A stretch of DNA of 64,000 nucleotides, taken from an uncultured bacterium. Lineage in GTDB: Bacteria; Patescibacteriota; Saccharimonadia; UBA4664. This document shows, piece by piece, positions 24,068 to 57,700 of this stretch; the first letter of the stretch is position 1; the number at the start of each line of letters is the position of its first letter. Where the stretch lies: positions 750,069-814,068 of the forward strand of contig CAVRET010000002.1 in assembly GCA_963720265.1 (NCBI GenBank), written 5' to 3'. Both the position numbers and the translations under genes were made by a program. The notes under the pieces are model-generated. The model was not told the origin of the DNA, did no database searches, and worked only from the letters and a program-made list of their open reading frames with translations.

Positions 24068-24868
24068 ATGACCGTATCGCCGCCGCTCATAGATTTGACC
24101 GAATCCGCGAACCTCCCCCTCGTGCACGTCGGCGGCAAGGCAGCCGCGCTCGGCCGTCTCGTAACCTTGGGAGCGCCGGTGCCGCCGGGATTTGTCGTGC
24201 CGCCCGAGGTTGACCTCGTTACCCACTCCAAGGCCATTCAAGATGCGCTAGCGGAGCTTAACGCAGGGCACGTGGCTGTTCGCTCATCAGCTGCGGGCGA
24301 GGATTCCGAGACCCAATCCTGGGCCGGCCAGTTTGAAAGCTACCTGTACGTGTCGCCGGCCGCAGTGTCGTCCCGCATTGCGGATTGCCGCGCCTCCGGC
24401 AGCACCGCCCGGGCTCGGACCTACGCTAACGGCGCCAATATGCCGGTAGCCGTCGTCGTACAAGCTATGGTCGCATCGGACGCCGCGGGGGTGCTTTTCA
24501 CCGTCAATCCAGTCACCAAAAATCCCAATGAGCTCATGATCGAGGCCGTTTGGGGCCTGGGCGAGCTCCTCGTCCAAGGTCTCGCCACGCCCGATAATTA
24601 CCTTGTGGCCAAGCTCACTGGTGAGCTCATGGATCAAACCATTGCGCCCAAGACCGTTATGATGACAGGTACTGACACCGGTCCAGCTGAGCGACCGGTG
24701 CCGGCAGCCCGCCGCACTCAGGCCGCACTCACGCCGCCTCAGCTCACCCAGCTTACCGCCCTGGCGGTGAACCTCGAGCGTAGTTTCGGCCACCCGCTCG
24801 ACATCGAATTTGCCTATGCTAGGGGAAAGCTTTACATTTTACAGGCTCGCCCTATTACTACGCTATAA
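24068..24868 (+). CDS. PEP/pyruvate-binding (PPDK_N-type) domain protein, N-terminal part of a split PEP-utilising enzyme
   Basis: VAVRSSAAGEDSETQSWAGQFESYL signature of the PEP-synthase / rifampicin-phosphotransferase N domain. It ends with LQARPITT as these domains do, with a TAA stop 12 nt before the next ATG. Confidence 0.6.
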   Translation: MTVSPPLIDLTESANLPLVHVGGKAAALGRLVTLGAPVPPGFVVPPEVDLVTHSKAIQDALAELNAGHVAVRSSAAGEDSETQSWAGQFESYLYVSPAAVSSRIADCRASGSTARARTYANGANMPVAVVVQAMVASDAAGVLFTVNPVTKNPNELMIEAVWGLGELLVQGLATPDNYLVAKLTGELMDQTIAPKTVMMTGTDTGPAERPVPAARRTQAALTPPQLTQLTALAVNLERSFGHPLDIEFAYARGKLYILQARPITTL

Positions 24869-24880
24869 CCGAGTATCATC

Positions 24881-25987
24881 ATGCCTCAATCCGACCAGGC
24901 TGAATTCTACCGCAAACAAATCTCACTCACTGAGTGGCTTGGCAATATGGACCATCCCGACACCGCGGTACTCCGCCGGGAAGATTTTGAAAAATATGAC
25001 CGCCTTGAGGTTCTGTGCCAAACCATTGGGCTGCCCTATGGCCGCCCCCGGCAGTTTCCGGCGGGTGCTGTGGCGGCGCGCGATCCCGAGTTTGAGACCT
25101 ACGTTCACGACCATGCCTCAGACCTCTGCATGATCCGTATTGTGCCGCATGATCCCGGCAATCCCAAGTTCCGCATGCGTGGCAAGACCATTGCTGAGGC
25201 TATTGAATGGTTTAAGCAACAAGCCGTTGACCCGGCCCGCTACGACATCTATCTGGTCCCGCACGCCGAGGATCACAGCTGGGGTACCATTTTTGTCGTC
25301 AACCAGCACGGCGTGTTTGGAGAAACCATCAACGGCGAGCACAACAAACTCACGCAGGGTTTATACGAAGCCGACGAGCACCCGGCCACTTTCAGCTCCA
25401 ACTTCGTCGATTGGCACTTCGATCCAAGCAACGCCGAGGCTGCAGCCTATATTCGCGGACTCATCGCCAAACTCAAGGTCGATGATCCCGAAAGTCGCGA
25501 CAAATTAACCGCCAAGCTAGGTGCTAGCTTTGCCCACGACTATCTTTGCGGCTACTTCGAAACCACTTGCTCGCGCACGCTTGGAACCTCGTTTCTCGAC
25601 TACAGTCCGGCGCTTGGGCGGCTATACGAGGATTTTGTCGAGCACGTTAGTCCGGCGCACGGTCGGGCGCTCGTGCGTGGCCAAGCCGGGAGCCCGGGTA
25701 CTGCTACCGGCCGTGTCCACATTGTCATGCCTGATCAAGTCGCCACCGCCCACCTTGAGCCGGACGAAATCCTAGTCTGCCGCATGACGACACCCGATTA
25801 TCTCCCGGTTATGCAACAAGCTGCGGCCATTGTTACGGATCTGGGCGGTACCCTCTCGCATGCCGCTATTGTAGCCCGCGAGCTCCACAAACCGTGTCTC
25901 ACCGCCACCGGCACTGCCACCACCGCGCTCAAGCCCGGCCAAACCGTCACAGTCGATGCCGACGCCGGCCTCGTCCGCAAAGCCTGA
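24881..25987 (+). CDS. PEP-utilising enzyme mobile (phosphohistidine swivel) domain protein, C-terminal part
   Basis: C-terminal GRVHIV...DEILVCRMTTPDYLPVMQQAAAIVTDLGGTLSHAAIVARELHKPCLTATG, including the catalytic His in the GG.LSHAAIVARE motif. Confidence 0.6.
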   Translation: MPQSDQAEFYRKQISLTEWLGNMDHPDTAVLRREDFEKYDRLEVLCQTIGLPYGRPRQFPAGAVAARDPEFETYVHDHASDLCMIRIVPHDPGNPKFRMRGKTIAEAIEWFKQQAVDPARYDIYLVPHAEDHSWGTIFVVNQHGVFGETINGEHNKLTQGLYEADEHPATFSSNFVDWHFDPSNAEAAAYIRGLIAKLKVDDPESRDKLTAKLGASFAHDYLCGYFETTCSRTLGTSFLDYSPALGRLYEDFVEHVSPAHGRALVRGQAGSPGTATGRVHIVMPDQVATAHLEPDEILVCRMTTPDYLPVMQQAAAIVTDLGGTLSHAAIVARELHKPCLTATGTATTALKPGQTVTVDADAGLVRKA

Positions 25988-26058
25988 AGGCCGTTTCACT
26001 ATCCATCTCACAGACAACCAACCTACAATGGGCTTACGGGTAATCAAGAAGACTGTTC

Positions 26059-26319
26059 ATGCGAACCATCGGCTCCAAGTATCAAATCCAGGGCGACGTC
26101 ATGTGCACCTCAAACGGCCAACCCATACCGGCTGATGAGCCACTTATGTTATTCCGCGGCCGCGACCGTTTACTCCCGGCTCTGCTCGATTATTACCTGC
26201 AACTGCGCCAGCAAAGCGGCATGACGCCTGAGCAGCTTGCCGACCTACAAGCCCAGGTAGATGCCATCAAACAATGGCAGGCCAGTTACCCCGACCGACT
26301 CAAAATGCCGACCAAATAG
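26059..26319 (+). CDS. hypothetical small protein (86 aa)
   Basis: ORF convergent with the regulator gene. An operator-like half-site GTTTCACTAT lies at 25993-26002 upstream. Confidence 0.35.
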   Translation: MRTIGSKYQIQGDVMCTSNGQPIPADEPLMLFRGRDRLLPALLDYYLQLRQQSGMTPEQLADLQAQVDAIKQWQASYPDRLKMPTK

Positions 26320-26321
26320 GC

Positions 26322-27026
26322 CTAATAGCTGTCCATCTCCATCGTCACCTCACTCATCTGAAGACTCTCAGACATCGAAGTCTCAATCATTTCAACTGAG
26401 CCCCGCATGGTTTTTGGTGACTTTCGAAGCTCATCAAGGGTTAGCCAAATGTTTTTGTTACCCTTAATACCAATCTCTTTAAACGTACCGCTGACGTACT
26501 GCGCGCTGAAAATAAAGAAGAATTTATCCTGTACGATTCGGCCGATGTACTTGTCTTTGTAGTGGGCGAGTCCACACAGTTTAACGGTGCACTCAAATCC
26601 CGCCTGCTCACGCATGGCCCGCTTAGCGGCGTCAGCCACGTCTTCGCCAAAGAACACCTTGTCACCCGGACTGCCATATGTCCCCCTATAAGGCACGATC
26701 ATCCGCTCTTGCATTAAGAAGTAGCGCTGCCCGTTTTCCATTTTCGAAAGATGTACTCGCACAGCCAAAAAACCCTGAACAATAAAGCTGTTCTTGTTCG
26801 GATACAGCATGATAGCTCGGCTCCGGCCCAATACAGACAGTGTGTACATTCCGTCAGCTTGCTTTTCGATCAACCCATACTTCTTTAGCTGTCGTAAATG
26901 GTACGAAAACTGGTCGCTCGGAACGTTGTCCACATTGATCTCGGCAAAGCGCAAGCTGTCACGCAAAAACAGCTGGCGCATAATGCCCATCTGAATATCG
27001 TTATTAATATCACGGTCTTGCTGCAT
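26322..27026 (-). CDS. winged-HTH plus NUDIX fusion protein (putative Nudix-type transcriptional regulator)
   Basis: N-terminal wHTH (FSYHLRQLKKYGLIEKQADGMYTLSVLG) and a C-terminal Nudix fold with box GDKVFFGEDVADAAKRAMREQAG. GC is lower than surrounding DNA. A palindromic site abuts TATAAT just upstream. Confidence 0.6.
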   Translation of the reverse strand: MQQDRDINNDIQMGIMRQLFLRDSLRFAEINVDNVPSDQFSYHLRQLKKYGLIEKQADGMYTLSVLGRSRAIMLYPNKNSFIVQGFLAVRVHLSKMENGQRYFLMQERMIVPYRGTYGSPGDKVFFGEDVADAAKRAMREQAGFECTVKLCGLAHYKDKYIGRIVQDKFFFIFSAQYVSGTFKEIGIKGNKNIWLTLDELRKSPKTMRGSVEMIETSMSESLQMSEVTMEMDSY

Positions 27027-27060
27027 AAGGACATTATTGTATACCGGGCGTCAAATTATA

Positions 27061-27076
27061 GTGAAACGCCCTTCAC
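27061..27076. promoter_or_regulatory. palindromic operator-like site GTGAA-N6-TTCAC, immediately followed (minus strand) by TATAAT, upstream of regulator gene
   Basis: gtgaaacgcccttcac. On the minus strand it reads GTGAAGGGCGTTTCAC-TATAAT (plus attata at 27055-27060), 28 nt before ATG 27026. It overlaps the stop codon of the NUDIX gene. Confidence 0.45.
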
Positions 27077-27522
27077 TACCTGGGACGCAGTCGCAGCCAA
27101 GCCCGAATCGCATCCGGCTCTGGACCCATTACATCGTACACATCGATTTCATCTGGATTCACCCATCGGAAATCATCGTGTTCATCACTGAGAGTGACCG
27201 TTTTCGAAACGCATCTGCAAGATAGAAACATTGCCACAATATGGTGCGCCTGTCCGGAAATCACCGGAAACCATTCACCCACAAACACTGGATGCCCAAT
27301 CTCGATTTCCAGCCCGGTTTCTTCCCGCACCTCTCGCCTTAAGCCGTCAAAAAAAGGTTCGCCGGGGGTAATGCGCCCACCGGGGACATGGTATCGGCCG
27401 TGGTTGGTACCTTCCTTGTATGTTGTTGCCTCACGCAATATCAACAGCTTACCTTCAGTATTCATGATCAGCGCTTTGGCAGCGACTCTTTGGCGGATGC
27501 TTTCTGAAGTTGGCATGGCCAA
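27076..27522 (-). CDS. NUDIX hydrolase
   Basis: Perfect Nudix box GGRITPGEPFFDGLRREVREETGL. The start is either ATG 27516 or TTG 27522. A TAATATTATTT element lies immediately upstream, giving a near-leaderless arrangement. Confidence 0.7.
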   Translation of the reverse strand: MAMPTSESIRQRVAAKALIMNTEGKLLILREATTYKEGTNHGRYHVPGGRITPGEPFFDGLRREVREETGLEIEIGHPVFVGEWFPVISGQAHHIVAMFLSCRCVSKTVTLSDEHDDFRWVNPDEIDVYDVMGPEPDAIRAWLRLRPR

Positions 27523-27566
27523 ATAATATTACGACACAATTCTCCGATATAGTGAAGGTCTGTTAA

Positions 27567-27582
27567 GTGAAGGGCGTTTCAC
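27567..27582. promoter_or_regulatory. second copy of GTGAA-N6-TTCAC operator-like palindrome, upstream of NUDIX gene
   Basis: gtgaagggcgtttcac is the exact reverse complement of the site at 27061-27076. It lies 45-60 nt upstream of the NUDIX start. A partial repeat CTTCACTATATC sits between it and the -10-like TAATAT. Confidence 0.45.
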
Positions 27583-27676
27583 CAAAGTCGGTTATAATGG
27601 CGCCATGATGCGAACCGTGCTCTTTGTCCCAATCGCATAAGCATAACCAGTAATGCTCTGGTAGAATAAGCCTACC

Positions 27677-28870
27677 ATGAACACCACTGCGGAGCCGCCT
27701 ACGGCAACTGTCATACCAGGTGCCACCAGCGATCGCGACCGCTACATCAAGCTGGTTGAAGACGCCACGGGCACACCTTTTCGGCCCGGCAACCAATTTA
27801 CCATCCTACAAAACGGCGACGAAATCTTCCCAGCTATGCTTGCGGGCATCCGCTCAGCCAAGTCGAGCATCGAGTTTGTAACCTATGTGTATTGGCATAG
27901 CCGCATTGCCAACGATTTTGCCGAAGCCCTGGCCGAGCGCGCCCGTGCCGGAGTGCGGGTACGGTTGCTCGTCGACGCCATCGGCGGCGCCATCATGAAT
28001 TCGCGTACCGTTTGGCAGCTTGAGCGCTCAGGCGTTAAACTGGCCTGGTTCCGTCCCGCCCGCTTCCAATATTTGTCCAAGCTCAACAATCGCACCCACC
28101 GCAAGCTGCTCGTAATCGACGGCGCCCTTGGCTTTACCGGCGGCGTGGGCATTGCCGACCAATGGGCCGGCCACGCTGACACCTCCGGTCATTTCCGCGA
28201 AACCCACTGCCAAATTATCGGGCCGGCCTGCGCCGATCTCCATGCCTCGTTTGCCGAAAGCTGGCTTGACGCCACCCACGAACGGCTGAAACCCCCGACC
28301 GCACTCGAGCCCGTAGGCAACATTGCTGTTCACACCACCAACTCCACCGCCGGCCGCCGCCCCACCGCGATTGGGCGGCTGTTTTTAAACATTATCGCCT
28401 CGGCTCGCCACAGGCTATGGATTACCACCGCCTATTTTGTACCCAACGAATACTTCATCGCCGCTCTGTCGGCCGCTGCTGCCCGCGGTGTAGAGGTGCG
28501 TGTGCTGACCAACGGTCCGCAGTCAAACCACAAAGTTACGCAACTCGCCGGCCGCGCCACCTATGCCCCTCTGCTCGCCGCCGGCGTCCGCTTATACGAA
28601 TACCAAGGCACCGTGCTCCACTCCAAAGTGCTCACGGCCGATAGCGCCTGGGCCACCATTGGCACCACCAACCTCGACGATCGCTCACTCATCCTCAACG
28701 ACGAGGTTAATGTCTCAACTGTTGATCCCGGCATCGTAAGCGCCCTTGACCGCCAATTTGAGGCCGACGTGAGCCGGGCCCGGGAAGTGCATGCGCCTCA
28801 TTGGGCCGCCCGCAGTTGGCCGGGCCGCGTGGCCGAAACCACTGCCGGCCTTTTCCGCCACCAACTGTAA
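27677..28870 (+). CDS. cls: cardiolipin synthase / phospholipase D family protein
   Basis: Two HKD motifs: HRKLLVIDGALGFTGGVGIADQW and HSKVLTADSAWATIGTTNLDDRS. About 397 aa. Confidence 0.75.
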   Translation: MNTTAEPPTATVIPGATSDRDRYIKLVEDATGTPFRPGNQFTILQNGDEIFPAMLAGIRSAKSSIEFVTYVYWHSRIANDFAEALAERARAGVRVRLLVDAIGGAIMNSRTVWQLERSGVKLAWFRPARFQYLSKLNNRTHRKLLVIDGALGFTGGVGIADQWAGHADTSGHFRETHCQIIGPACADLHASFAESWLDATHERLKPPTALEPVGNIAVHTTNSTAGRRPTAIGRLFLNIIASARHRLWITTAYFVPNEYFIAALSAAAARGVEVRVLTNGPQSNHKVTQLAGRATYAPLLAAGVRLYEYQGTVLHSKVLTADSAWATIGTTNLDDRSLILNDEVNVSTVDPGIVSALDRQFEADVSRAREVHAPHWAARSWPGRVAETTAGLFRHQL

Positions 28871-30718: not shown

Positions 30719-31252
30719 ATGAGCTATCCATTCAACCACATCCCATTTGGCAAACAAGGCGAGTTCGTCACCACCGTTATTGAGATTCCAAGAGATTCTA
30801 TGCTCAAAGTCGAGTGGCGCCGTCACGAAGAATACTTTGTGCTCGACCGCGTTGAGCCCGGTATTTTTGCCAAACCAGTCAGCTACGGCTTTATCCCGCA
30901 AACCCTGGACGCCGACGGCGACGAGCTCGACACCCTCGTAGTTACTGAAGAGCCGCTGCCGATGGGGCTGGTGATCCAGGAGGCGCGCGTCATCGGCATG
31001 GTAGACTTTCAAGACAACGGCGACGATGACTACAAAATTATTTGCGTGCCCGTCGACGATCGCAATCGCGGCCCCATCAAGCACGTCGACGAGCTCGGCG
31101 AGCAATGGAAGCGCCAAATTACTTACCACTTTGATCACTACAAAGACTTAAAAAAAGGCGGCACCAAAGTGCGCGGCATCTTGGGCCCAGACGAGGCCTG
31201 GAAAATCATTGCCGAATGCGTGCAACGCGCCCAGGCCGAAAAATGGTGGTAA
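30719..31252 (+). CDS. ppa: inorganic pyrophosphatase
   Basis: DADGDELDTLVV and the surrounding family-I PPase motifs (YGFIPQTL, KIICV). 177 aa. Confidence 0.8.
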   Translation: MSYPFNHIPFGKQGEFVTTVIEIPRDSMLKVEWRRHEEYFVLDRVEPGIFAKPVSYGFIPQTLDADGDELDTLVVTEEPLPMGLVIQEARVIGMVDFQDNGDDDYKIICVPVDDRNRGPIKHVDELGEQWKRQITYHFDHYKDLKKGGTKVRGILGPDEAWKIIAECVQRAQAEKWW

Positions 31253-31259
31253 GTAAGGT

Positions 31260-31685
31260 TTGTCCCCGATCGATTTAGCGCACATTCTCAACCGCACCAG
31301 CCGCGCCGTTGGTGCGCTCGTAACCAGACCAGACGGCCGCCTGCTCATGGTGCGCGATCGCCTGCGGCGCGAATGGTCGTACCCGGCCGGCTACGTTGAC
31401 CGCGGCGAGCAGCCGCTCGAAGCCGCCCTTCGCGAGCTGCGCGAGGAGGTCAACATCCGCCTCACGTCCGACCGTCTTGAATTCGCCGGCACCCGGGTTA
31501 TCAAACGTCCCTTAGGAAAGCTTGAATTCACTACCTACCGGGCGGGCGTCACCACAGAAGAAATCGCGAATCTCAAACTCCAAGCCATCGAGCTTACCGC
31601 CTACAAATGGGTCACGCCGGATGAAGCCCTTGAGCTCACCTCTGCCCGCCTCCGGCCGCGCCTGCGCGAACTACTGTCAGCCTAA
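31260..31685 (+). CDS. NUDIX hydrolase
   Basis: Nudix box GYVDRGEQPLEAALRELREEVNI. Confidence 0.65.
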   Translation: MSPIDLAHILNRTSRAVGALVTRPDGRLLMVRDRLRREWSYPAGYVDRGEQPLEAALRELREEVNIRLTSDRLEFAGTRVIKRPLGKLEFTTYRAGVTTEEIANLKLQAIELTAYKWVTPDEALELTSARLRPRLRELLSA

Positions 31686-32185
31686 GACGCTCGTTCTAAC
31701 TGTTCCCGAGCAGCAGCCACAGCGCTAAGCACGTGGCCCCGATTTTTACTTTCCGGCAGAGTTTCTTCAGTAAACCAGCCAATTTCCGCAATCTCGCTCG
31801 TGGGCTGAATTTGATCCCTCGCCACGCGGCCAGCAAAAATATAACGCGCTGAAACACCGTCGTCATTTACAAGTTCATCAACGGCGACCAAGCCAACATC
31901 GGTAGCCGCCAAGCCGATCTCTTCCTCAAGCTCCCGCGCCGCCGCCCCGTCCGGCGCTTCGGCCTGACCTTGCGCATGATCGAACTTACCGCCAGGCAAC
32001 TTCCAATTTTCTGTATCGTCGGCCTCAGTTAAAGCCAAAAATGATTCCGGATCCTCAAGATCAAAAAGCACGATCCTGACACTATCAGTCGGGCGGCGAA
32101 CTTCGGGCGATGTATCTCCATTTGCTGGCCGTTCCTGTTCGACCGGGTGCTCAGCCTCAAAATGCTCATTCATGGGCTCAAGCAT
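31682..32185 (-). CDS. NUDIX hydrolase
   Basis: Nudix box GGKFDHAQGQAEAPDGAAARELEEEIGL. The start is assigned to the internal ATG at 32185 (MLEPMNEHF) to avoid overlap with the divergent gene. Confidence 0.55.
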   Translation of the reverse strand: MLEPMNEHFEAEHPVEQERPANGDTSPEVRRPTDSVRIVLFDLEDPESFLALTEADDTENWKLPGGKFDHAQGQAEAPDGAAARELEEEIGLAATDVGLVAVDELVNDDGVSARYIFAGRVARDQIQPTSEIAEIGWFTEETLPESKNRGHVLSAVAAAREQLERAS

Positions 32186-32307
32186 ATCATGCCACCCGCA
32201 GCCGTTGACCGCACGGCCGGCCGCTGATCTTGTTGACGTTATCTCATCGCATGGGATTGATCCTATACCGTGTCGCATCTCGTACCCTCGGAAGGGAGGT
32301 TAACGAC

Positions 32308-47423: not shown

Positions 47424-50400
47424 CTACTGCGTCACAAAGTAGCTGTATTTGTAGGTAGTAGCACCAGACAAGTTGTTGCTGTTGGTTTCAAGGCTAAAGC
47501 CCGTGGTTGACGGCGACGTGTAATACTGCAGCGCCGAACCATTGGCTGCGGCCGGCGTCAGTACCACGTTGGGTGTAGCACCAAACACATTGGAAAACGT
47601 AATATCAGCCAAATCACCGGCCGCCGAGCATGGCCCCGCACCGGTCGTAATAGTAATCGTGCCGCTGGTATCATCGCCGGTCACACTCACACTGGCAGTC
47701 CCGCTGCAATTCGCCGCCGCTCCGGCCGCAATGCCGGGCGTGCTGCCGCCGGTAATAATATGGCCGTCAACCGTTAGGTTGGCCGTCACCACGAGCGAGC
47801 TGACCGTAACCGTCATGGTCGTGGTATCGGCTGTCAGCACTGCTGCGCCCATTTGATTTTGAACCTGGAAAGCCGAGGTCGAATCAGTCGGAGTTTTAAT
47901 GAGCGTTTGCCCCAGCCCACTCACCTCAAACACGGATTGATCCGCGGCGTTGCGAATCATTACTCCCTCATCCGCGGTGTTCTGCACCGTCAGCACCGTA
48001 GCCGATTTTGTCACAATGTTGGCCCCAGTCACGTTCGACCCTTCGCGGCCGATTGTCCAAGCTGTATCCGACGGCCCGTTAAGGTAAATCGCCTGGTTGT
48101 TATCCAGCGAAACGTTGCCGTTTGCGATCTGCAAAGCTTGCTGCGGCGCCGACGTGCCGATACCAACATTGCCGCTGCGGTCAATTACCAGGCTGTCGCT
48201 TAGGCTATCGGTCGTAGAATCTGCCACCGGATTAATCGGCACACCAATGTCGGCCCAATCGGCGGTATCAACAAACCAGCTCATATCAACATTACCGCCG
48301 GTGCCGGGCGCATCAGCGCCGCCCTCGCCGTACACCGACGATGTATTTGGCAGGTACCACATTTGGCTCTGAGTGTCGGCGCTGTAGAGGCTGCTATTGT
48401 TGTTCGTCACACCAATCGCATCGACTACCAATTGCGATGTGCTGGTCGTGGGCACCAAAAGATTCGTTGCCTGGTAACCGGTTGTGGTACCGCTAGCCGT
48501 GGCAAACGTGCCCAGCGGCGTGGTTTGATCAACGTTGTAGAACGTGGCCGCACCAATCGAGCCGGTGCCGGCTGAACTCATGGTGGCAACGATATCATAG
48601 CTACCACTCGGCGGATTCAAAAGGTACCACAGCTCAACATGCGCGCCCACCGGATCAACCACCTGCGGCGAGTTTTTGGCTGCAATCTGCGTCAGCGCCA
48701 AGCCGTTATAGGTGACCGCGGTGAATGTGCGCTGCTGATTCGTCTCAACTTGCACTAGCATCAACCGGTTACTTTCGGAGCCGGTTGTAAAGCCGCTTAG
48801 GGTAACCGTGCTGCTGCCAAAGCTTGCAATCTCCCCCGTGTTATCAACGGTTACCGCGCTAGCGCCGGGCTTAGCGGTCCGGAAGATAAACGAGCCCGAG
48901 CCGGCAGCACCAGTGCCGTTAGAAGCGTCGAATGTAATATTGCCGCCACTGGCGTTGGTGCCCGTCGCCTCCCCACCGCGCACGGTCAAATCTTGCGGCG
49001 TTCCATCTTGCCCCAAAATAATCGCCATATCGGTCGTATCTGCGGAAATAAGCGACGCTCCGGCGGCATTCTGGATCGCAAAGGCGTCCGTTGAATCGGC
49101 CGGATCCTTAAACACTGCCGAACCCTCAACGTCTAAGTTGGCACTTGGCGTGGTGGTACCGATGCCAACCGATGCGGTGCTACCGGTAAAGAAGCCGGAG
49201 TCGGCAGCCAGCGTCTGAGACTGGATGGAATTGAGCGCAGTTGGTATGACTGCTACTTCGGCGATTTCGCCGGTAAACGGACCGTTAAAGGGGTCGTCGC
49301 CAATATACCACGAGCCCGTGTAGCTCTGAGGTGTATTGTACGAAGGGTTCGAGGCTACCAATTGGCCGTCTACGTAGAGATACATGCCGGCGCTGGACAC
49401 GCTGGCAACCGCGATATGCCAACTGCCGTCATTGACGGCCGCCGAACTTGTAATTACTTCGTTGCCAAGAATGTTGTTATAAATGCGGAAATTCAACTTG
49501 CCGCTGCCGTCAATAAAGAGTTCCCTATCATGTGCAGCGCCGCCAACGCCGCCGATCAGCTCGCCCTCGTTAGTGGTATTAAACATTACGACCTGGCTAA
49601 ACGTTGTCGGCAGGGTTGCGGAATTCGCCGTCGTAATTTCACTCGGGCTGGCTGAATTAAATGCCATCGCTGGTTGTGTATTGTCGCACGAGAATGGGCC
49701 CGGGGTCTGGTTCGTGGTGACATTCGAGAGCGTGCCGGTGTTGTTATTGCCCGAGCTGTCGGCTCCCGTAGCACCGGTATCATCAAGCTTCCAATACGCG
49801 TCAGGCGCAAAACTGTCCACATAGTTCTCATAAGTGGAGACTCCACAGTTGGTGGGTGCGTTAACAGTTAGGGTGCCGTTACCCGAATCAAAGTTTAGCG
49901 ACGGATTACCGCTGGCATTTTGAACCTGGAAAGCCGAAGACGAATCAGTGCCGGGCTGAACGATCACGCTTCCACCCGCGCCGGTCCCGGCAGCGGCCCC
50001 GCTTTGCAATACCAAGTTGCCGCCGTTGCCATTGCCGCCGGCGTTCCCGGCCGCAATCGTCAAATCACCGCCAGTCCCACCGGAGCCGGCAATCTTCCAA
50101 GTCGAACTGGTAGCGGCTGTAATGTCGAGCGCGCCGGTGGTAGTGGTGTAACTAGCGCCGCCGGACGTAGCGGCAATATTTGCACCGCTAATGTTAATAA
50201 AACCACTGCCGCCACTGATGTTCACGCCGCCGCCATAAATCGAGGTCGGCGCGAGCATTGCGGAGTTGCCAATAGTTATTTCTTGCGCGTTCGTGGCGCC
50301 CAGGTCGAGCGCTGCCGTCGCCGAAGACGAACTAAGATCAGTAATCGTAACGTCATCAATGTAGTGCACCTCCCCAATAGTCTGGGCGTCGTTGGCTGAG

Positions 50401-51752
50401 AAGTAATAGCCCATCTCCGTTGCACCCACCGGCGCCGTTAATACGCCTACGACTTTGCGCCAACCGGTTGAAATATCCGTAACCGTCCCGAAGTCCTGCG
50501 TCGAAATTGCGCCGCCGCCGTAATATCCGTTACTTGACCATGTCACTCCGGCGGTGATGTTGTCCGAGTTTGTGGCCGCCCGCACCCAAGCCTCAACGGC
50601 GTAGGTATGGCCCTGGGTAACCGGAATAATCATTGGTGGATTTGTTATACCGTCTGCGGTTTCCCATCTCGGAAAGTAGTTGCTGCCAACGGCGATTGAC
50701 AAGCTGTGGGTACCGCTGTGGGCCTGGGCATTCGTTTGGGTTATAACCGAATTGTCGCCAAAGATGCCGTCGCCCATGTTGTCAATGCCGTCCTCGAATG
50801 TCTTATCGTCGATCAAGGTGCCTGATAGCACGCTATTTCCGGTATCAATTGAGACATTGCCGGCCGCTGTCGTGGACGAATCTCCGGACTGGAGGGTAAT
50901 ATTACCGCTCGAGCCGGTGCTGCTGCCGGTGATAATGGCGACATCTCCGGTACCACCTTGCAACAATGCGGCACTGGCACCCTCGGCTGAACCCAAACTC
51001 ACATTTTCCACGCCGTTGCCGGTACTCAGGTTGTTGCCGCTTTGAGTCACCATTGAGCTGCCAAGCGTCGTGGCATCGGTGAAGTAGGCGAGTGATCCCG
51101 CGGTTCCGCCCACGGCCGCCACTCCGCCGCCCGCGCTGTTAGTTACGTTCGTAACATCGGTAAGATTGGTGACGTTTGTGGTATTGCCGGCCTGGTTCGT
51201 TACATTTGTGACATTGTTGGTCACATTACCGCCGCCCAGCAGATTTAAGAACTGCTTACCGTTGTAATACTCCAGTACGTTACCGGTCTGATCATAATAC
51301 AGCTCACCGGCGACCGCCGAGGTCGGCTGCGAGCTCGGTACAAGCACGATCGGGCCGGTGACGTTAAGCTGGCCGTTGACAGTCAACTGCCGGCCGCCAG
51401 CTGTCTGCCCGGCTGCCAGCGACTGGCTAACGTCTGCCAGTGGCACTGATTGCGAGGTCGGCAATTGGGCAAGCAGCGCCGAGCTGGCCGCCGGCGGATT
51501 GTTCGCCGCTGAGGCCACAAAATACACGCCGGCCCCAAACGCCGCAATGATGAGCGCAAACCCGGCCATGCGCTGAAGTGACATGAACGGCTTTTTGTCG
51601 CTCGGCCGGGGTGGTTGCGGGCTTGGGTGCGTCTCATCGGCTGACTGCACCGGTGTCGCCTCTGGCACGGCCTGTAGATTCTCCGGCTTCTCATACGTTG
51701 CGTCATGGTTGAGATCAATTGGCTGGTTTGAGCCTGGGGTAATATCGTTCAT
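47424..51752 (-). CDS. giant surface protein (1442 aa), paralog 2
   Basis: Start ATG 51752 overlaps the upstream stop by ATGA. N-terminal cytoplasmic stretch plus TM (FMSLQRMAGFALIIAAFGAGVYF), then an NVTNNVTNVTN repeat stalk and LamG-like lectin regions. The conserved C-terminal domain is shared with 51749..59131. Confidence 0.7.
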   Translation of the reverse strand: MNDITPGSNQPIDLNHDATYEKPENLQAVPEATPVQSADETHPSPQPPRPSDKKPFMSLQRMAGFALIIAAFGAGVYFVASAANNPPAASSALLAQLPTSQSVPLADVSQSLAAGQTAGGRQLTVNGQLNVTGPIVLVPSSQPTSAVAGELYYDQTGNVLEYYNGKQFLNLLGGGNVTNNVTNVTNQAGNTTNVTNLTDVTNVTNSAGGGVAAVGGTAGSLAYFTDATTLGSSMVTQSGNNLSTGNGVENVSLGSAEGASAALLQGGTGDVAIITGSSTGSSGNITLQSGDSSTTAAGNVSIDTGNSVLSGTLIDDKTFEDGIDNMGDGIFGDNSVITQTNAQAHSGTHSLSIAVGSNYFPRWETADGITNPPMIIPVTQGHTYAVEAWVRAATNSDNITAGVTWSSNGYYGGGAISTQDFGTVTDISTGWRKVVGVLTAPVGATEMGYYFSANDAQTIGEVHYIDDVTITDLSSSSATAALDLGATNAQEITIGNSAMLAPTSIYGGGVNISGGSGFINISGANIAATSGGASYTTTTGALDITAATSSTWKIAGSGGTGGDLTIAAGNAGGNGNGGNLVLQSGAAAGTGAGGSVIVQPGTDSSSAFQVQNASGNPSLNFDSGNGTLTVNAPTNCGVSTYENYVDSFAPDAYWKLDDTGATGADSSGNNNTGTLSNVTTNQTPGPFSCDNTQPAMAFNSASPSEITTANSATLPTTFSQVVMFNTTNEGELIGGVGGAAHDRELFIDGSGKLNFRIYNNILGNEVITSSAAVNDGSWHIAVASVSSAGMYLYVDGQLVASNPSYNTPQSYTGSWYIGDDPFNGPFTGEIAEVAVIPTALNSIQSQTLAADSGFFTGSTASVGIGTTTPSANLDVEGSAVFKDPADSTDAFAIQNAAGASLISADTTDMAIILGQDGTPQDLTVRGGEATGTNASGGNITFDASNGTGAAGSGSFIFRTAKPGASAVTVDNTGEIASFGSSTVTLSGFTTGSESNRLMLVQVETNQQRTFTAVTYNGLALTQIAAKNSPQVVDPVGAHVELWYLLNPPSGSYDIVATMSSAGTGSIGAATFYNVDQTTPLGTFATASGTTTGYQATNLLVPTTSTSQLVVDAIGVTNNNSSLYSADTQSQMWYLPNTSSVYGEGGADAPGTGGNVDMSWFVDTADWADIGVPINPVADSTTDSLSDSLVIDRSGNVGIGTSAPQQALQIANGNVSLDNNQAIYLNGPSDTAWTIGREGSNVTGANIVTKSATVLTVQNTADEGVMIRNAADQSVFEVSGLGQTLIKTPTDSTSAFQVQNQMGAAVLTADTTTMTVTVSSLVVTANLTVDGHIITGGSTPGIAAGAAANCSGTASVSVTGDDTSGTITITTGAGPCSAAGDLADITFSNVFGATPNVVLTPAAANGSALQYYTSPSTTGFSLETNSNNLSGATTYKYSYFVTQ

Positions 51753-54700
51753 TGTGCCACCCAATAGTTCCATTCATAGGTCGACGTATTCGACGGAGTT
51801 GTGCCGGTGCCAAGGTCAAAACTGGTGGGGGAAACAGTACTGTCGTCAACGTATGCGTTAAGTGCTGCGGCATTAGATCCGCCGGCCGTCAGCGTTACGT
51901 GCGGCGCAGCGCCAAACGCTGTCGCAAACGTGATGGTGGCAAGCTTCCCGCTGGCGGAGCAGCCCGACCCGGTCGTAATCGTAATGGTACCGCTCGTGTC
52001 ATCGCCGGCTACACTCACGGTTGGGCTGGTGCAAGCAGCGGTCCCGGCCGCAATCCCGGGCGTGCTCCCGCCGGTAATCACGTGACCGTCCACCGTTAGG
52101 TCGGCCGAAACGGTGAGCGCCGTCACGGTCACGATCATGTGAGTCGTGTCGGCGGTCAGCAACGGGGTATTGCCGGTATTCTGTACCACAAAGGCCGTCG
52201 CTGAATCGCTAGAGTTTTGGAACGTAGTCGCGCCGTTGCCGTCGATTGACACCACCGGAGTACCACCGTTGTTTTCGATCTGAAGCGTCTCAAACGGAGA
52301 GCTCGTCGATGCCACGTTTTGCAGCGTGAAGCTGTCGTACGCTGTCGCTGAGCCGTTCCAGTAATTACTCAAAAGCTGCAGGCCGTCAGAGTTTGCTGTC
52401 GGCACGAAAGAAGTGGCATTGGTGGGTGCTTGTAATTGCACGTCATGATCAACAGTGTCGACGTCAAATTCGGGTGCACCACCGCTGTCCATAACCCCGA
52501 ACGCGCCGAGTGAATTAACATACCCGACGCTCGTAGTGCCTGATACTTGTAGTGCGGAAACGGTCGGCGCGGTGTCGATACCCACCCGGCCATTAACCGT
52601 GTCCACGTCAATGACATCTGAGCCGGTGGCATCTTGCACCTGGAACGCAGATGTGGAATCAGTGCTATTTTGTAGGGTCGCTGCGCCGCTGGTCGTCAGG
52701 TTGAAGAGCGAACCGTGGAAGATGTCGCTCGTGCCACTGTACGAGCCGTAGATCGCCAAGTGGTAGTTGCCGTTGCCGTCATCGGTGCCGTTGCCAAACC
52801 AACTCGCATTCCAGGTACCAGGGGTTACACTGCCCTGGAAAAAGTCGGAGCCGCTGCCATCACACGTCGCGTAAAATACATCGCCTGAGCTCGACGTTCC
52901 GATGACCAGCCAGTAATTGGTACCGACCGTAACATTGAGCGGAGTATCGAGCGTAATATTGTTCCAGTTTGGACTGCCAGGCGACGGCGCAGTGATTGTC
53001 TGTGTGCCGGTGTGTTGGTCGAGGAGGGTTCCTGGCGTGCCCGCATTATCGCTGTAGATAGCCACGGAAAACGGGTCCCCGCCGCCGCTGTCAAACGCCA
53101 CGTTAAGCGACGTCAGCGTGCCGTTGGCCTGGGCCGTATACTGTGTTGTCTGGTCCTCGTTAGAGTTACTGTCATTGCACGAATTCGTCATACTGGCGAG
53201 ATTGTTGCCAATCACAACCGCTTGCTGAGCCGTTGCTGCTGAGTTGATGTTAAATGAATCGCCGGCATTTGGATTCACGCCCTCGTAGAAACTCGTGTTG
53301 GCATCAGCCAGTTGAATCGACGAATCGCCCGACCCCGCCTGCTGCACCGTTAGCTGCGAGGCGGTCGTAGTGTCGTTGTTGGACTGGACAACGACGCCGG
53401 TATTGCCCGAGGCCGCGCCGAGCGTGACCGTCTGGTTTGTTCCGTCCACCGAGATTAGGTTCACCCCGGCGGCAGTCTGCACCTGGAATGCGGTGCTGGT
53501 ATTGTTGGGGTCACGGAATAGCGCCGTACCTTCGTCGTCAATGTTGGCCTGCGGAGAAGTCGTGCCAACACCGATTGACGCCAGCTCAGCGTTATACACG
53601 CCCGCATCTGTCGCCAGCGTCTGAATCTGCGGTGCTGTAACAACCGAAAGCGAAACGGCAGCCTGCGAGATCTCGCCGTCAAAAGCGGTATTGCTCATAT
53701 TGGGCCAACTGGCGCCAAAGGAATTGCCGATCCACCAAGTGCCGTTGGTGTAGTCGGCCGGGTTATTGTAGCCGGGATTTGCCCCCACCAGCCGGCCGTC
53801 TAGGTATAAGAACAAGCCGCTGCTTGATTCAGTCACGACCGCCATGTGCCAATTGCCGTCTGCCACCGAGCCCGCACTTGATATTACCTGTACGCCCTGG
53901 CCGTTGTTGAAAATCCCTGCATACAGCCGGCCGTCTGTGCCGACGTACATCTCACGGTCCCAAGACGTTACGTTATCGCTAAACGATTCCAACACGCCGC
54001 TTCCGCCGTTGGTCTTAAACAATGCGATCTCGCTGTAGACATTCGGCGAATTGATTGCGTTTGGTGTGGTAATTTGGCTGTTGCTGGCGCTACTAAACAA
54101 CATCGCTGGATGGCTTGGGGCGCACGTGAATGCACCCGGTGTCTGGTCGGGCGTCACATTGGAAAGCGTGCCGTCGTTGCCGTTGCCGGAACTATCGACC
54201 GCGGTCGAGCCGGTGTCCTCCAGCTTCCAGTACGATGCCGGGCTCAAGCCGTTCATAGCGCTTACATAATCCGAATAATCACACCCGGCAGTATTATTAA
54301 CGATTAAATTACCGGTGTCATTTATGTCGTCGTTTGCCGTATCGGCCGTAAACAACGCATTGCCGGCAGCGTCCTGAATCTGGAAAGCTTGGGTTGAATC
54401 AGATGCATCTTGGAAATTGGCATCCCCACCAACATCTAGCGTATGGGTCGGATTCGAAGTGCCGACGCCGACGCCGTTGCTTCCGATAACCAGGCTATCA
54501 CTCAACGTGTCGGTTATAGAGTTAGAAGTCGGGTTAATTGGTACGCCAATGTCCGCCCAGTCGGCGTTGTTAACCGACCAGTTCATGTTGACCGTGCCAC
54601 CAGTACCAGGAGCATACGACCCGGCCGCCGGCCAATTGCCGCCGGACGGCGGTTGGTTCCAGATCTGAGTCTGGCCCGGGTTGACCGTCGGGTCATCGCC

Positions 54701-57700
54701 GTCTGTCCCAATGCCATCAACTACCAGCTGGGCCGCGCTGGTTGTCACAACATTAAGGCTCGTCGACTGCAATCCCGTGGTCGTGCCGCTGGCAGTCGCA
54801 ACCGTACCAAACGGCGTGGTTTGGTCCACATTGTAGTACGACGATGCACCGATCAGCATACCGGTACAGTTCGGAATGTTGGCCAATACGTCATGAGTGC
54901 CCGAGGGCGGGTTGAGCAGGTACCACATCTCAACATCAACCGAGTTATCCTTAACAGCCAATTGCGTCAGCGGGAAGCCATCGTAGCTGACCGAGGTATA
55001 GTTCACATCCGAGATGACCGTGACGACAAGCACACGGTTGGACTGGCTGCCCGTGGTAAAGCTCAATTTGGCCTCACCACAGTTGCCGTCGTCGCCAATC
55101 TCGTTGCCCGTGTTATCCAATGTCACTGCACTCCCGCTGGGCTTGGCCGTCCGGAATATAAATGAGCCCGACCCGCCGGCACCGGTGCCGTTCGAAGCAT
55201 CGAATGTAATGTTGGCACCGCTGGCGTTGGTGCCGGTGGCCGCCCCGCCCCTCACCGTGAGGTCGGTCGGCGTGTCGTCTTGACCAAACACAATAGCATT
55301 GTTTGTGGTGTCGGCGGTGAGCAATGAATTACCGGCAGAGTCTTGGATCTGGAAAGCAGTGGGTGAGTCAGTGGTGGACTGGACAAGATCAACGCTACCC
55401 AAATACTGAGTCACGCCGGATCCCTGAAAGGTGAGCAGGCCGCCACCGGTATTGCCGACGGTGACATCGTTGGCGTTCGCGGTACCGATGTCGACATTGG
55501 CGTTAGTATCCGCAAGAACGTCGATCCCGGCGCCGCCCCCCAGCAGGGATGTCAGGCCGGCTTGCTGATAGTTACCGATATTGATTGCCTGGGCGTTAGT
55601 AGCGCCGATATTTATGCTGGGCGAAGCAACAGTGGAAAGATCGGTGACGGTGGCGTCGTCAATGTACTGAATTTGGCCGTTTGTGCCATTGGACGCTGCA
55701 AACTGGAGGTCCATTTGCTCGTTTGGATGGCCGGGATTGACGGCCGGCGCCACGACATTACCGAAAAGATGGGTCCAGCCGGTAGTGGTGTCGGTGGCCG
55801 ACGCCCACGTTGTGGTGCCTGCCTGGCCATTCCACCATTGCACCTGGCCACTAATGGTCTCGGCAACGGTGTCGGCTCGAATCCAAGCAGACAGGGCGTA
55901 GATGTGACCTGGGGTCACCGTAGGTCCGAGTCCGCCCCCTTGTGTGGTGGCCCAGAGTCCTGAGCCTTGCTCAGTTACAGCGAGGCTGTGAGTACCGCCG
56001 TGGGCCTGGGCGGTGGATTGAGCGACCGACACATTAATGTAGTTGCCGAAGTTCTCGGTACTGCTCTCAAAGGTAAAGTCGCTGATTTGGGTGCCACTGG
56101 GAGTGTTGGCTCCGTTGTCGATGGTGACATTGCCGGAGTTGCCGGTGGATGAATCTCCGGTCTGGATGCCGATCCCGGCAGTGGTGCCGGTACCCGAGCC
56201 GGTGTTAATGGCAACGCCACCGGTACCGCCTTGAATCGTCACGCCGCCGGAACCGGCGTAAATTGAAGTGGTCGCAGCCCCATTAGTCGTACCAAGGGTA
56301 ACCGCTGAGTTGGTGGAGTCGACGCTGAGGAGTGTGTTACTGCCGGAGGCATTTTTAACCTGGAAAGCGCTTGTTGAATCAGAGGTCGGCTGGACAGTGA
56401 TGCTCGAGCCGGTATCAGTGATAGACGAATCGCCAACCGTCGTGCCCGAGCCGGTAAATTTGGCTAGCTTGTCGGCCGTGCCCGAGCCGCCGACCCCTCC
56501 ACCACCTCCGCCGATACTACAATTGCCGAGAGTAAACAAACATACCGTATCAGTCGTGCCACCTGGAATCGACGGGAACTGAATGGTAGCATTGCCGGTG
56601 CTGCTCGGGCTCAAACCCTGCAAAGCCACGGTTTGCGTCGTGCCTGCGTTGGCCAATGTAAGTTGTCCGGCCAAGCTCCCGGGAGTGCCAAGCACAACCT
56701 GGTCGGCGTTCGTATCCACGGTAAAAACACTATTCCCGGACGCATCCTGCACCTGAAATGCCTGGCTCGTATCAGTTGGATCCTGAAAAACCGCTGCTCC
56801 ATCCTGTGTCAGCGTGCCCGACGGTCCGATAATCGTCGCCGGGCCGTTGGTGGTGTAGCTGGCATACATCGAGTACAACGAGCCGGTAGACACTGAGCCG
56901 GACGGATACGTGGCCGGTAAGCCGTTGTCTGGGCCGCTTTGCCACGTGTTCGCGACCCCATCGACTGTGGCCGACGGGAAGCCGTTTGAGTAGGTGATGG
57001 TGTCGTTCCCATTGGCCCAAAACACTAACCAATAACTCGTGTTCGCGAGCACATTCACCGGGCTGGTCAGGCTCAACGTGTTCCAGCCCGACGGTGAAGT
57101 CAGCGTACCGATGCCGGTTGAACCGACGTAATTGCCGGGTACGCCGCCGTTATCGTCATAAATCGCGAGCTGATATTGATTGTTGGGTGACACCGTTTGG
57201 CCGACGCCAATGTAAACTGACATCGAGCCCAGCGTACCGGCCACGCCGGTGGTAAACTTAAATGCCGCTAGCGTTCCCGGAGTAATGGCCGACCCGACGT
57301 TGGATCCTTCGCTGGTGCTGCCCAGTGCCCCGCCCGCGCCCACGCCTAAGCTTACCTCGCGGTCGGTTGAATCAGCTGTTAGCAAATTAATCCCGCCCGC
57401 CGACTGCACTTGGAAATCGGTCGTCGTATCCGACTGTGGCTTCACAATCACACCCCCGGCGGTCCCGCCCCCGGCGCCGAGCGTAAGCGAACCGCTCGTG
57501 GTACTAAAGCTTGACGCTCCTGAACCGTCCACGGTAATCGCGCCGCCGTTCACGTCAATGTTCGCAGTCCCCGCGTTAAGGTTAATACCGCTGCCGCCGT
57601 CAATCGTTGTTGGCGCAACCTCGTTCATGTTCCCGATCGACACCACCTGAGCATTGTTCGCACCCAAATCAAGCTCAGACGAAGATGACCCCGAGCTAAG

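Follow-up and report, generated by a model that had tools for sequence, protein, structure and literature searches.

What are two adjacent genes, both encoding Nudix domains and each preceded by the same palindrome, doing in the genome of an uncultured Saccharimonadia bacterium? The genes lie on the minus strand of a 64,000-nucleotide stretch of contig CAVRET010000002.1, which we call the window and which represents a small part of a genome of roughly 1.1 Mb. The first, REG (26322..27026), encodes a protein in which a winged helix-turn-helix (wHTH) domain precedes a Nudix domain; the second, NUDIX148, encodes a stand-alone Nudix hydrolase. We suggest, at a probability of about 0.72 for the reading as a whole, that REG is a one-component transcription factor with a catalytically dead Nudix domain as its sensor, that it works on a conserved operator and controls a Nudix hydrolase, and that the module is inherited vertically within Saccharibacteria, its low GC content reflecting mainly the conserved amino acid composition of REG. 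Both genes proposed in the preliminary description of this DNA (26322..27026 and 27076..27522) are open reading frames (ORFs), of 234 and 148 amino acids. The 83%-identical NUDIX148 ortholog of the related locus L039 aligns with the 148-residue ORF only from residue 3, so the ATG at 27516 is a likelier start than the TTG at 27522 and the gene is better given as 27076..27516, with 146 residues.

The two-domain nature of REG is seen in both sequence profiles and the predicted structure. Pfam places a NUDIX domain at residues 97–205 (E 3e-8, 34.2 bits against a cut-off of 21.1), and residues 7–68 match wHTH models weakly and below their cut-offs: DUF7347 (E 1.9e-4, 22.0 bits against a gathering threshold of 27.6), HTH_20 (17.9 against 27) and HTH_5 (15.1 against 22). 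Many of the close homologs carry a precomputed DUF7347 match (PF24038), and no NCBIfam family reaches its cut-off for either REG or NUDIX148. In the AlphaFold2 model, built from 27 homologs (predicted local distance difference test score, pLDDT, 89.7), residues 10–71 form a helix-strand-helix-helix unit followed by a beta hairpin, that is, a winged helix; a linker leads to a Nudix alpha/beta sandwich that begins at about residue 86. The Pfam positions and the model bear out the order wHTH then Nudix, the reverse of NrtR, which had been proposed from the translation. When the N-terminal domain is modelled alone, Foldseek relates it to the AspA–DNA complex, CadC, MarR, YodB, PagR and HlyU at template-modelling (TM) scores of 0.56–0.70, the E-values against these DNA-binding wHTH proteins being weak (about 1e-2); by sequence, the closest match is CadC/ArsR (E 0.011). 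For the Nudix domain, structural matches are MTH1, Bacteroides AraR (5bs6) and the Nudix domain of Shewanella NrtR in complex with ADP-ribose (3gz8), with TM scores of 0.70–0.74 for MTH1 and the NrtR domain (0.70 for 3gz8). No other part of the protein is as conserved as the predicted recognition helix, SDQFSYHLRQL (residues 37–47), in which S37, D38, Q39, Y42, H43, L44 and R45 are invariant in the REG alignment; the motif SDQ[FL]xYHLRxL is found in 94 of 104 homologs.

The Nudix fold of REG is intact but its Nudix box is not. The box, GEDVADAAKRAMREQAGF, is degenerate, RAMREQ standing where the canonical GX5EX7REUXEEXGU signature, with its three metal-binding glutamates, has REUxEE; the preliminary description had overlooked this. 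The change is a property of the clade, since all 98 homologs with a locatable box have R[A/N]Mxx[Q/E]. The first catalytic glutamate, which follows the arginine, is present in none of them (46 have alanine and 39 asparagine), the second position is glutamate in 21, and the third is glutamate in 43 and glutamine in 45. In NrtR, a perturbed Nudix signature accompanies the loss of hydrolysis and a role as ligand sensor (PMC2330246). By analogy, the Nudix domain of REG would have lost hydrolysis and would offer a pocket for a small nucleotide-type ligand.

The candidate operator is equally distinctive. As first described, a 16-mer, GTGAAACGCCCTTCAC, occurs at 27061–27076 and its exact reverse complement at 27567–27582. 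The underlying pattern, GTGAA-N6-TTCAC, occurs twice in the 64 kb against an expectation of 0.06, and one in 100 shuffles reached two. We scanned the window with an operator matrix trained on other genomes only and obtained just four matches of at least 6 bits, all of them inside 25982–27584. The best in the window is the 20-bp palindrome TAGTGAAACGCCCTTCACTA (site B, 27059..27078, 20.4 bits), a putative operator that overlaps the NUDIX148 stop codon and lies between NUDIX148 and the REG start. The palindrome AAGTGAAGGGCGTTTCACCA (site C, 27565..27584, 15.6 bits), the reverse complement of the site B core and likewise a putative operator, occupies the divergent intergenic region between NUDIX148 and a cardiolipin-synthase-like gene. 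An additional direct half-site, TAGTGAAGG, at 27550..27558 on the plus strand, lies 7 nt from site C on the side of the NUDIX148 start and gives 15.3 bits for the matrix window that begins at 27550; it was overlooked in the preliminary description. Over 30 shuffles of the window the matrix maximum reached up to 14.2 bits and about half of the shuffles exceeded 8, a background to which we return for the fourth match.

Comparison with relatives turns this local pattern into a conserved one. We compared 47 loci (13 from species-representative genomes, 23 from metagenomes, two from close relatives and several from distant relatives); the orthologs come from Saccharibacteria metagenome-assembled genomes and metagenomes and are 41–79% identical in protein sequence to REG of the window. 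The sequence TAGTGAAG-N4-CTTCACTA precedes every REG ortholog that was recovered with its upstream region, amounting to 31 distinct upstream sequences, and an 18–20 bp palindrome stands before the regulator gene in about 35 related genomes. The resulting profile, AGTGAAG-N4-CTTCACT, carries 1.5–2.0 bits at each half-site position, falls to about 0–0.4 bits in the flanks, and its end is held at a near-constant 32–37 nt from the REG start codon. Exact GTGAA-N6-TTCAC has 24 matches in the 47 loci, each of them preceding the regulator gene or, for L001 and L039, the neighbouring Nudix gene, and none anywhere else in these loci; the concern that the palindrome might be frequent in coding regions does not hold for the window or for the 47 loci. 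The two operators of L039 keep their half-sites while their spacers, TTGTTT and GAGAAT, are unrelated, the pattern expected of a protein-binding site. Conservation before every ortholog thus strongly supports the proposal that the palindrome is an operator.

A few more distant relatives bear on the pairing of protein and operator. The member with an SDQ helix in L041, which is only 29% identical to REG and, at 37% GC, is set among different genes, still carries TCTAGTGAATTCTTCTTCACTAGA at −57. Members with a TDQ or TDH helix show close variants of the motif, CTGAAGCCGGCTTCACT in the case of a TDQ member, and the palindrome of a member with an SNL helix, TTGACTGACTTGCATTAGTCAA, is a different one. 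Recognition helix and operator appear to change together in these few anecdotal cases.

It could be argued that REG is mainly an enzyme, or a Nudix protein targeted to nucleic acid with the wHTH as a tether, and that the palindrome is another regulator's site or a promoter element. Among 125 full-length distant representatives, 51 have no parsable box, and 43 of the other 74 retain an intact REUxEE, the largest recognisable class; the consensus of the distant-relative alignment, A3, is AAxRELxEETGL, and Nudix enzymes with extra N-terminal domains exist (CDP-Chase and UDP-Xase). These numbers weigh against a sensor, as some relatives may be active enzymes and the Saccharibacteria clade may keep residual activity. 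Within that clade, however, the first catalytic glutamate is missing from every one of the 98 boxes, and the palindrome accompanies the REG gene in all genomes examined, including the 29%-identical relative elsewhere in gene context. Such co-occurrence of palindrome and gene across genomes is a signature of autoregulation. Nor do the two enzymes provide a precedent. CDP-Chase and UDP-X diphosphatase (3q1p, 4hfq) are Nudix proteins of about 200 residues with an extra N-terminal helical domain, to which full-length REG aligns in Foldseek with a root-mean-square deviation of 10–12 Å. In place of a wHTH they carry an N-terminal helix-loop-helix, which makes up a four-helix bundle, and they have a YXTP hinge, LPXLS motifs and an intact Nudix box and are enzymes (PMC3655063). 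REG has a wHTH with a beta-hairpin wing and a degenerate box, and the YXTP hinge and LPXLS motifs are not present in its sequence; we have therefore rejected a common architecture and regard a mainly enzymatic REG as highly improbable.

A second possibility is that the palindromes act in RNA, as a terminator or attenuator, and are not protein-binding DNA at all. Site B comes directly after the NUDIX148 stop codon, folds with its flanks at −17.9 kcal/mol and is followed by UAUAAUUU, which is what might be looked for in a terminator. The folding is, however, no better than that of shuffled sequence (z = −1.6, −1.7, −1.5 and +1.1), a terminator scan gives no call there, the element lies between divergent genes in most genomes, where a terminator is unneeded, and conservation tracks the sequence of the half-sites and not pairing alone. 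The shuffle-level fold energies and the missing terminator call led us to reject the hairpin, which we find scarcely credible.

We turn now to what the operator would control. NUDIX148 is a plain Nudix domain (Pfam E 1.1e-18, 67.9 bits) with a canonical box, GGRITPGEPFFDGLRREVREETGL, a perfect match to GX5EX7REUXEEXGU, and the original identification of a stand-alone Nudix hydrolase with a perfect box was correct. Its closest named relatives are NudI, NudG and MutT2-type (deoxy)nucleoside triphosphate ((d)NTP) pyrophosphohydrolases, which are likewise small, single-domain enzymes with a perfect box; the best match in the PDB is 6dt3 (E 2.9e-12). A specific assignment goes too far, and this tells against our reading on the side of the target: NUDIX148 scores 46.4 bits against the NudI equivalog NF012016, whose curated cut-off is 95, and is far below family cut-offs. 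The linkage to the regulator is nevertheless general. Nearly all loci have a Nudix hydrolase gene directly upstream of the regulator, usually divergent from it, in agreement with the regulator-plus-enzyme module first proposed. Two types of neighbour occur: one is a NUDIX148 ortholog (50–63% identity) with a single palindrome, the other a more distant Nudix protein (27–35% identity) with an added half-site, in the arrangement CTAGTGAAGG-N7-palindrome. The half-site-N7-palindrome layout is found in at least 11 other loci (among them L002, L004, L013, L014, L017, L018, L020, L021, L032, L038 and L039), and site C of the window has exactly this type of extra half-site at 27550–27558. On these grounds NUDIX148 is likely to be an enzyme controlled by REG.

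Two close relatives show how the module is arranged. In L038, whose regulator is 72% identical to REG, the order is cardiolipin synthase gene (cls) and Nudix gene, both on the minus strand, then half-site and palindrome, then REG and the NUDIX148 ortholog on the plus strand. L039 (79% identity) has the order of the window, with cls on the minus strand, palindrome and half-site, NUDIX148 on the plus strand, a further palindrome and REG on the plus strand. The window lineage has the hydrolase between two operator copies in inverted orientation, and the counterpart of site C is present in L039 with a different spacer. In the window, sites B and C flank NUDIX148 in opposite orientation and are identical even in the non-palindromic 6-nt spacer, which suggests recent local duplication, inversion or gene conversion in the window lineage.

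How the operator is placed within the promoter bears on the sign of regulation. On the minus strand, a TATAAT directly follows the first 16-mer copy at site B, and the preliminary description took it for the −10 box of a classical autorepression layout. The hexamer is indeed there, but this position matches TATAAT at six of six letters only in the window and at 1–5 of 6 in other loci; as it is not conserved we have rejected it as a −10 box and prefer to see in it the outer part of the extended palindrome, TTCACTA. Nearly all of the 31 distinct upstream sequences have a −10-like hexamer, in many cases with TG before it, at 17–23 nt downstream of the right half-site; 22 nt is the commonest distance. 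For the window, a promoter scan gives TTCACT-18-TACAAT; the predicted −10 box, TACAAT, is at 27036..27041 (minus strand) and about 9 nt before the REG ATG, implying a very short predicted leader. We also considered the TTCACT half-site as a universal −35 box and discarded this idea, as it is at the 17–18 nt spacing in some loci only; most have 20–23 nt, which brings the −35 position up against, or partly into, the 3′ end of the palindrome. Counted from the predicted transcription start, the last base of the operator falls at about −31 to −35, and its centre near −40 in the window and −44 in most loci. By this measure the operator covers or abuts the −35 region, and it is because of this that repression appears to us the most likely mode.

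The placement fits repression by occlusion, yet it does not settle the sign of regulation, and many of the promoters combine a TG-extended −10 with a poor −35, which would also fit a class-II-type activator; both points count against a repressor. As an activator, REG would sit at about −40 to −44, bring RNA polymerase to promoters with a poor −35 and, in the presence of ligand, switch on the Nudix gene and its own gene. The palindrome ends 20–23 nt upstream of a frequently TG-extended −10 in most loci, and class II activators typically have their site centred at about −41 to −44. Small one-component wHTH regulators on divergent promoters are, however, mostly repressors, and in the window and several loci TTCACT is itself the best −35-like hexamer, at 17–18 nt, where a bound protein would compete with sigma. 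Characterised NrtR proteins, moreover, sit on their operators and are released by ligand (PMC2330246). The NrtR precedent and the TTCACT hexamer in several promoters make us favour ligand-relieved repression as the likelier mode, to which we would give about even odds in absolute terms; activation we consider doubtful.

We can now describe how a repressing REG would work. We infer that REG itself binds the palindrome as a dimer, represses, and responds to a ligand. Each of the two winged helices would engage one half-site of AGTGAAG-N4-CTTCACT, and the distance from one half-site centre to the other is 11 bp, or about one turn of DNA; dimers on palindromes with half-sites one turn apart are typical of the small wHTH proteins of the ArsR and MarR type. 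Operators would stand before REG (site B), before NUDIX148 together with the extra half-site (site C) and, weakly, before a small gene (site A, described below). REG would repress its own gene and the Nudix hydrolase gene or genes until ligand binding relieves repression, and the ligand is plausibly a substrate or product of the controlled hydrolase. The outcome would be a substrate-induced loop for nucleotide house-cleaning or salvage, functionally like that of NrtR. Transcription factors are scarce in Saccharibacteria and the other ultra-small bacteria of the candidate phyla radiation (CPR, Patescibacteria), and hardly any of them has a known DNA site or signal. What is gained here from sequence alone is a conserved candidate protein–operator pair (with AGTGAAG-N4-CTTCACT as the site), a target class, the Nudix hydrolases, and a testable sensor domain; these open gene regulation and the control of the nucleotide pool to experiment in organisms that rely on a host for nucleotides.

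The fourth match of the matrix scan, site A (25982..26001, GCCTGAAGGCCGTTTCACTA, 8.0 bits), is a weak third palindrome with a perfect right half and a degenerate left half. It overlaps the stop codon of a phosphoenolpyruvate (PEP)-utilizer gene and lies upstream of a small gene of 86 amino acids (26059..26319, plus strand), an ORF convergent with REG. The half-site GTTTCACTAT reported at 25993–26002 is present, but it is part of this palindrome and not a mere half-site; a near-complete third copy of the 16-mer, with two mismatches, spans 25984–25999. As a matrix match site A has to be dropped, since 8.0 bits is within the range of the shuffles, and this counts against a third operator. Comparison with L046 is more favourable. 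Upstream of the 65%-identical homolog of the small gene there, CTGAA, CTTCACTAT and, 22 nt on, CTACAAT have been kept while the rest of the intergenic region has drifted; site A of the window has the same CTGAA, CTTCACTAT and CTACAAT features with a gap of 23 nt, and the spacing from site A to CTACAAT is that of the common regulator promoters. As the half-operator and the −10 spacing are kept in L046, we suggest that site A is probably functional but weak.

The 86-residue protein has no Pfam or NCBIfam match and only four homologs, its own copy in the window included, in 5.8 billion proteins. Both homolog contexts that we examined (L046 3001–3261 and L047 3001–3255) have the same neighbourhood of PEP-utilizer, regulator and cls genes, in high-GC genomes that resemble those of Saccharibacteria, and the small gene is a possible extra member of the regulon. 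The cls-like gene of the window, which encodes a cardiolipin synthase or phospholipase D (PLD)-like protein (27677..28870, plus strand, Pfam PLDc_2 6.4e-44) and is divergent from NUDIX148, is a possible target of site C. In L038 the cls gene shares its strand with the divergent Nudix gene and follows immediately after it. No conserved promoter geometry was seen for the cls-like gene.

The preliminary description regarded these genes as a low-GC islet, probably acquired horizontally; on that reading the segment would be a recent foreign arrival with its own regulator, enzyme and operators. The islet is real in composition. The window has a GC content of about 58%, 1500-bp windows over the whole 64 kb have a mean of 0.583 with a standard deviation of 0.023, and the minimum, 0.493 in the 1500-bp window from 26251 (about 3.9 standard deviations below the mean), is the 1.5 kb around the regulator. 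NUDIX148 has a lowish GC content at third codon positions (GC3) of 0.52, the order of genes in the module varies among close relatives, and the two operator copies have an identical spacer, all of which could be taken for recent arrival. The foreign origin itself is a different matter. The module is present at the syntenic site, between cls/GalU and PEP-utilizer/PMSR/G6PD, in L038 and L039, with their 72–79% identical regulators, and in L046 and L047; the family is spread throughout Saccharibacteria, its homologs being annotated as Candidatus Saccharibacteria or Saccharimonadales; and the gene tables of the flanks contain no integrase, transposase or tRNA gene. The GC content of REG at the three codon positions is 0.50/0.33/0.60, the first two being the lowest in the window and the third ordinary for its genes, and another Nudix gene of the window has a GC3 of 0.50. 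The deficit at positions 1 and 2 recurs in orthologs from high-GC relatives, which lie below their flanks (−0.094 in L038, −0.071 in L039 and −0.028 in L013), whereas in low-GC genomes the REG ortholog and its flanks do not differ. Synteny and this recurring deficit point to a vertically inherited, compositionally conservative gene, and we rate recent acquisition as quite unlikely. The same palindrome before the regulator gene in about 35 related genomes likewise gives the locus the look of a regulatory unit that has been inherited, not imported.

The closest functional parallel is NrtR. REG shares with it a Nudix fold with a perturbed signature joined to a winged helix, a palindromic operator of about 20 bp before its own and target genes that is conserved across genomes (its sequence is unlike the NrtR motifs) and linkage to Nudix genes (PMC2330246); the likeness extends to structure, the Nudix domain of REG matching 3gz8 at TM 0.70 and AraR 5bs6 (PMC4666351; NrtR structures 3gz5/3gz6/3gz8). 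The differences are nonetheless fundamental. The domain order of REG is reversed, with the wHTH first, and that wHTH resembles ArsR/CadC, AspA, MarR and DUF7347/HTH_45, with no NrtR-type wHTH model among the Pfam matches to REG at E up to 0.1. Its neighbours are Nudix hydrolases, unlike the NAD, pentose or arabinose genes of the NrtR and AraR regulons; the loci that we examined contain no NAD genes, and the operator-bearing genes are Nudix hydrolases, the small gene and possibly cls. A further trait of the NrtR family is that ADP-ribose weakens binding to DNA. Because REG departs from NrtR in the order of its domains, in the kind of DNA-binding domain and in the content of the regulon, it looks like an independent wHTH-Nudix fusion that is NrtR-like in function but outside the NrtR family. 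The dead-Nudix ligand sensor would then probably be the product of a second origin, in which the domains are in reverse order and the DNA-binding domain is of another type, and the intact-box relatives may record the transition from enzyme to sensor.

Residues 10–71 of REG have the fold common to ArsR/SmtB-type and other small wHTH repressors (CadC 1u2w/3f72, HlyU, PagR, YodB and MarR). REG differs from the ArsR group in having neither metal-site residues nor ArsR-type dimerisation helices, and its effector domain is the C-terminal Nudix fold; with HTH_5 and HTH_20 below their cut-offs it is not a member of the ArsR/SmtB profiles, and the likeness is at the level of the fold. An uncharacterised Pfam architecture, DUF7347/HTH_45 followed by NUDIX, has the same two-domain layout as REG. 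In an exhaustive HMMER search 748 cluster representatives passed E<1e-3, 256 of them with E<1e-10; most have about 230 residues and align across both domains, and in a scan of 101 sequences (100 distant relatives and REG) NUDIX matched 97, DUF7347 57 (at E up to 1e-3) and HTH_45 48. We found no paper on the wHTH-Nudix architecture or on DUF7347 in the literature on Nudix domains with winged helices and on Saccharibacteria, Patescibacteria and the CPR.

Where the gene context of family members was examined, the genomes were small and of the Saccharibacteria/Patescibacteria type. Distant members with 26–29% identity lie beside dCTP deaminase (DCD) genes in L040 (3001–4270) and L041 (498–3705); the L041 member has an intact box, RELLEE, and a GTGAA-type palindrome, and the L040 member has a degenerate box and a different palindrome. 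This adjacency and the likeness of NUDIX148 to NudI, NudG and MutT2 hint at pyrimidine (d)NTP metabolism, which we offer only as a lead. Going further is speculative, and we think the following extension improbable in its entirety: the wHTH-Nudix proteins would be one-component regulators of a large and so far undescribed family (at least 256 clusters at 50% identity, E<1e-10), members with an intact box would be enzyme-repressors that destroy their own effector, and the Saccharibacteria clade would serve purely to sense a metabolite of the nucleotide pool, which could be a pyrimidine (d)NTP or a host-derived damaged nucleotide, and would control Nudix enzymes of sanitising or salvage. Were this true, the wHTH-Nudix regulator would be one of the few conserved metabolic switches in these epibiotic, nucleotide-auxotrophic bacteria.

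We note a few further features. L047 encodes a wHTH-Nudix paralog of 244 amino acids (2184–2918) with the helix SDLYNYHLQYL; the small gene follows it, and between the two, at 2923–2942, is a related but distinct palindrome, CCGAAGACCTCTTCTC. The window has at least four Nudix-domain genes within 6 kb, namely REG, NUDIX148 and two at 31347–32278: one of 112 amino acids (about 31347..31685, plus strand) and one of 198 (31682..32278, minus strand, GC3 0.50). An inorganic pyrophosphatase gene (30719..31252) adjoins these two, and the scan of the 64-kb window found no operator-like matrix match near them. Upstream of site A, the PPDK_N (ATP-grasp) part is encoded alone at 24068..24868 and the PEP-utilizers mobile domain alone in the adjacent gene at 24881..25987; no gene for a PEP/pyruvate-binding domain is beside the pair, and the split is kept in relatives (L047). 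Farther along the window, two very long minus-strand ORFs of 1449 amino acids (47424..51773) and 2460 amino acids (51749..59131) lie back to back with a 25-nt overlap.

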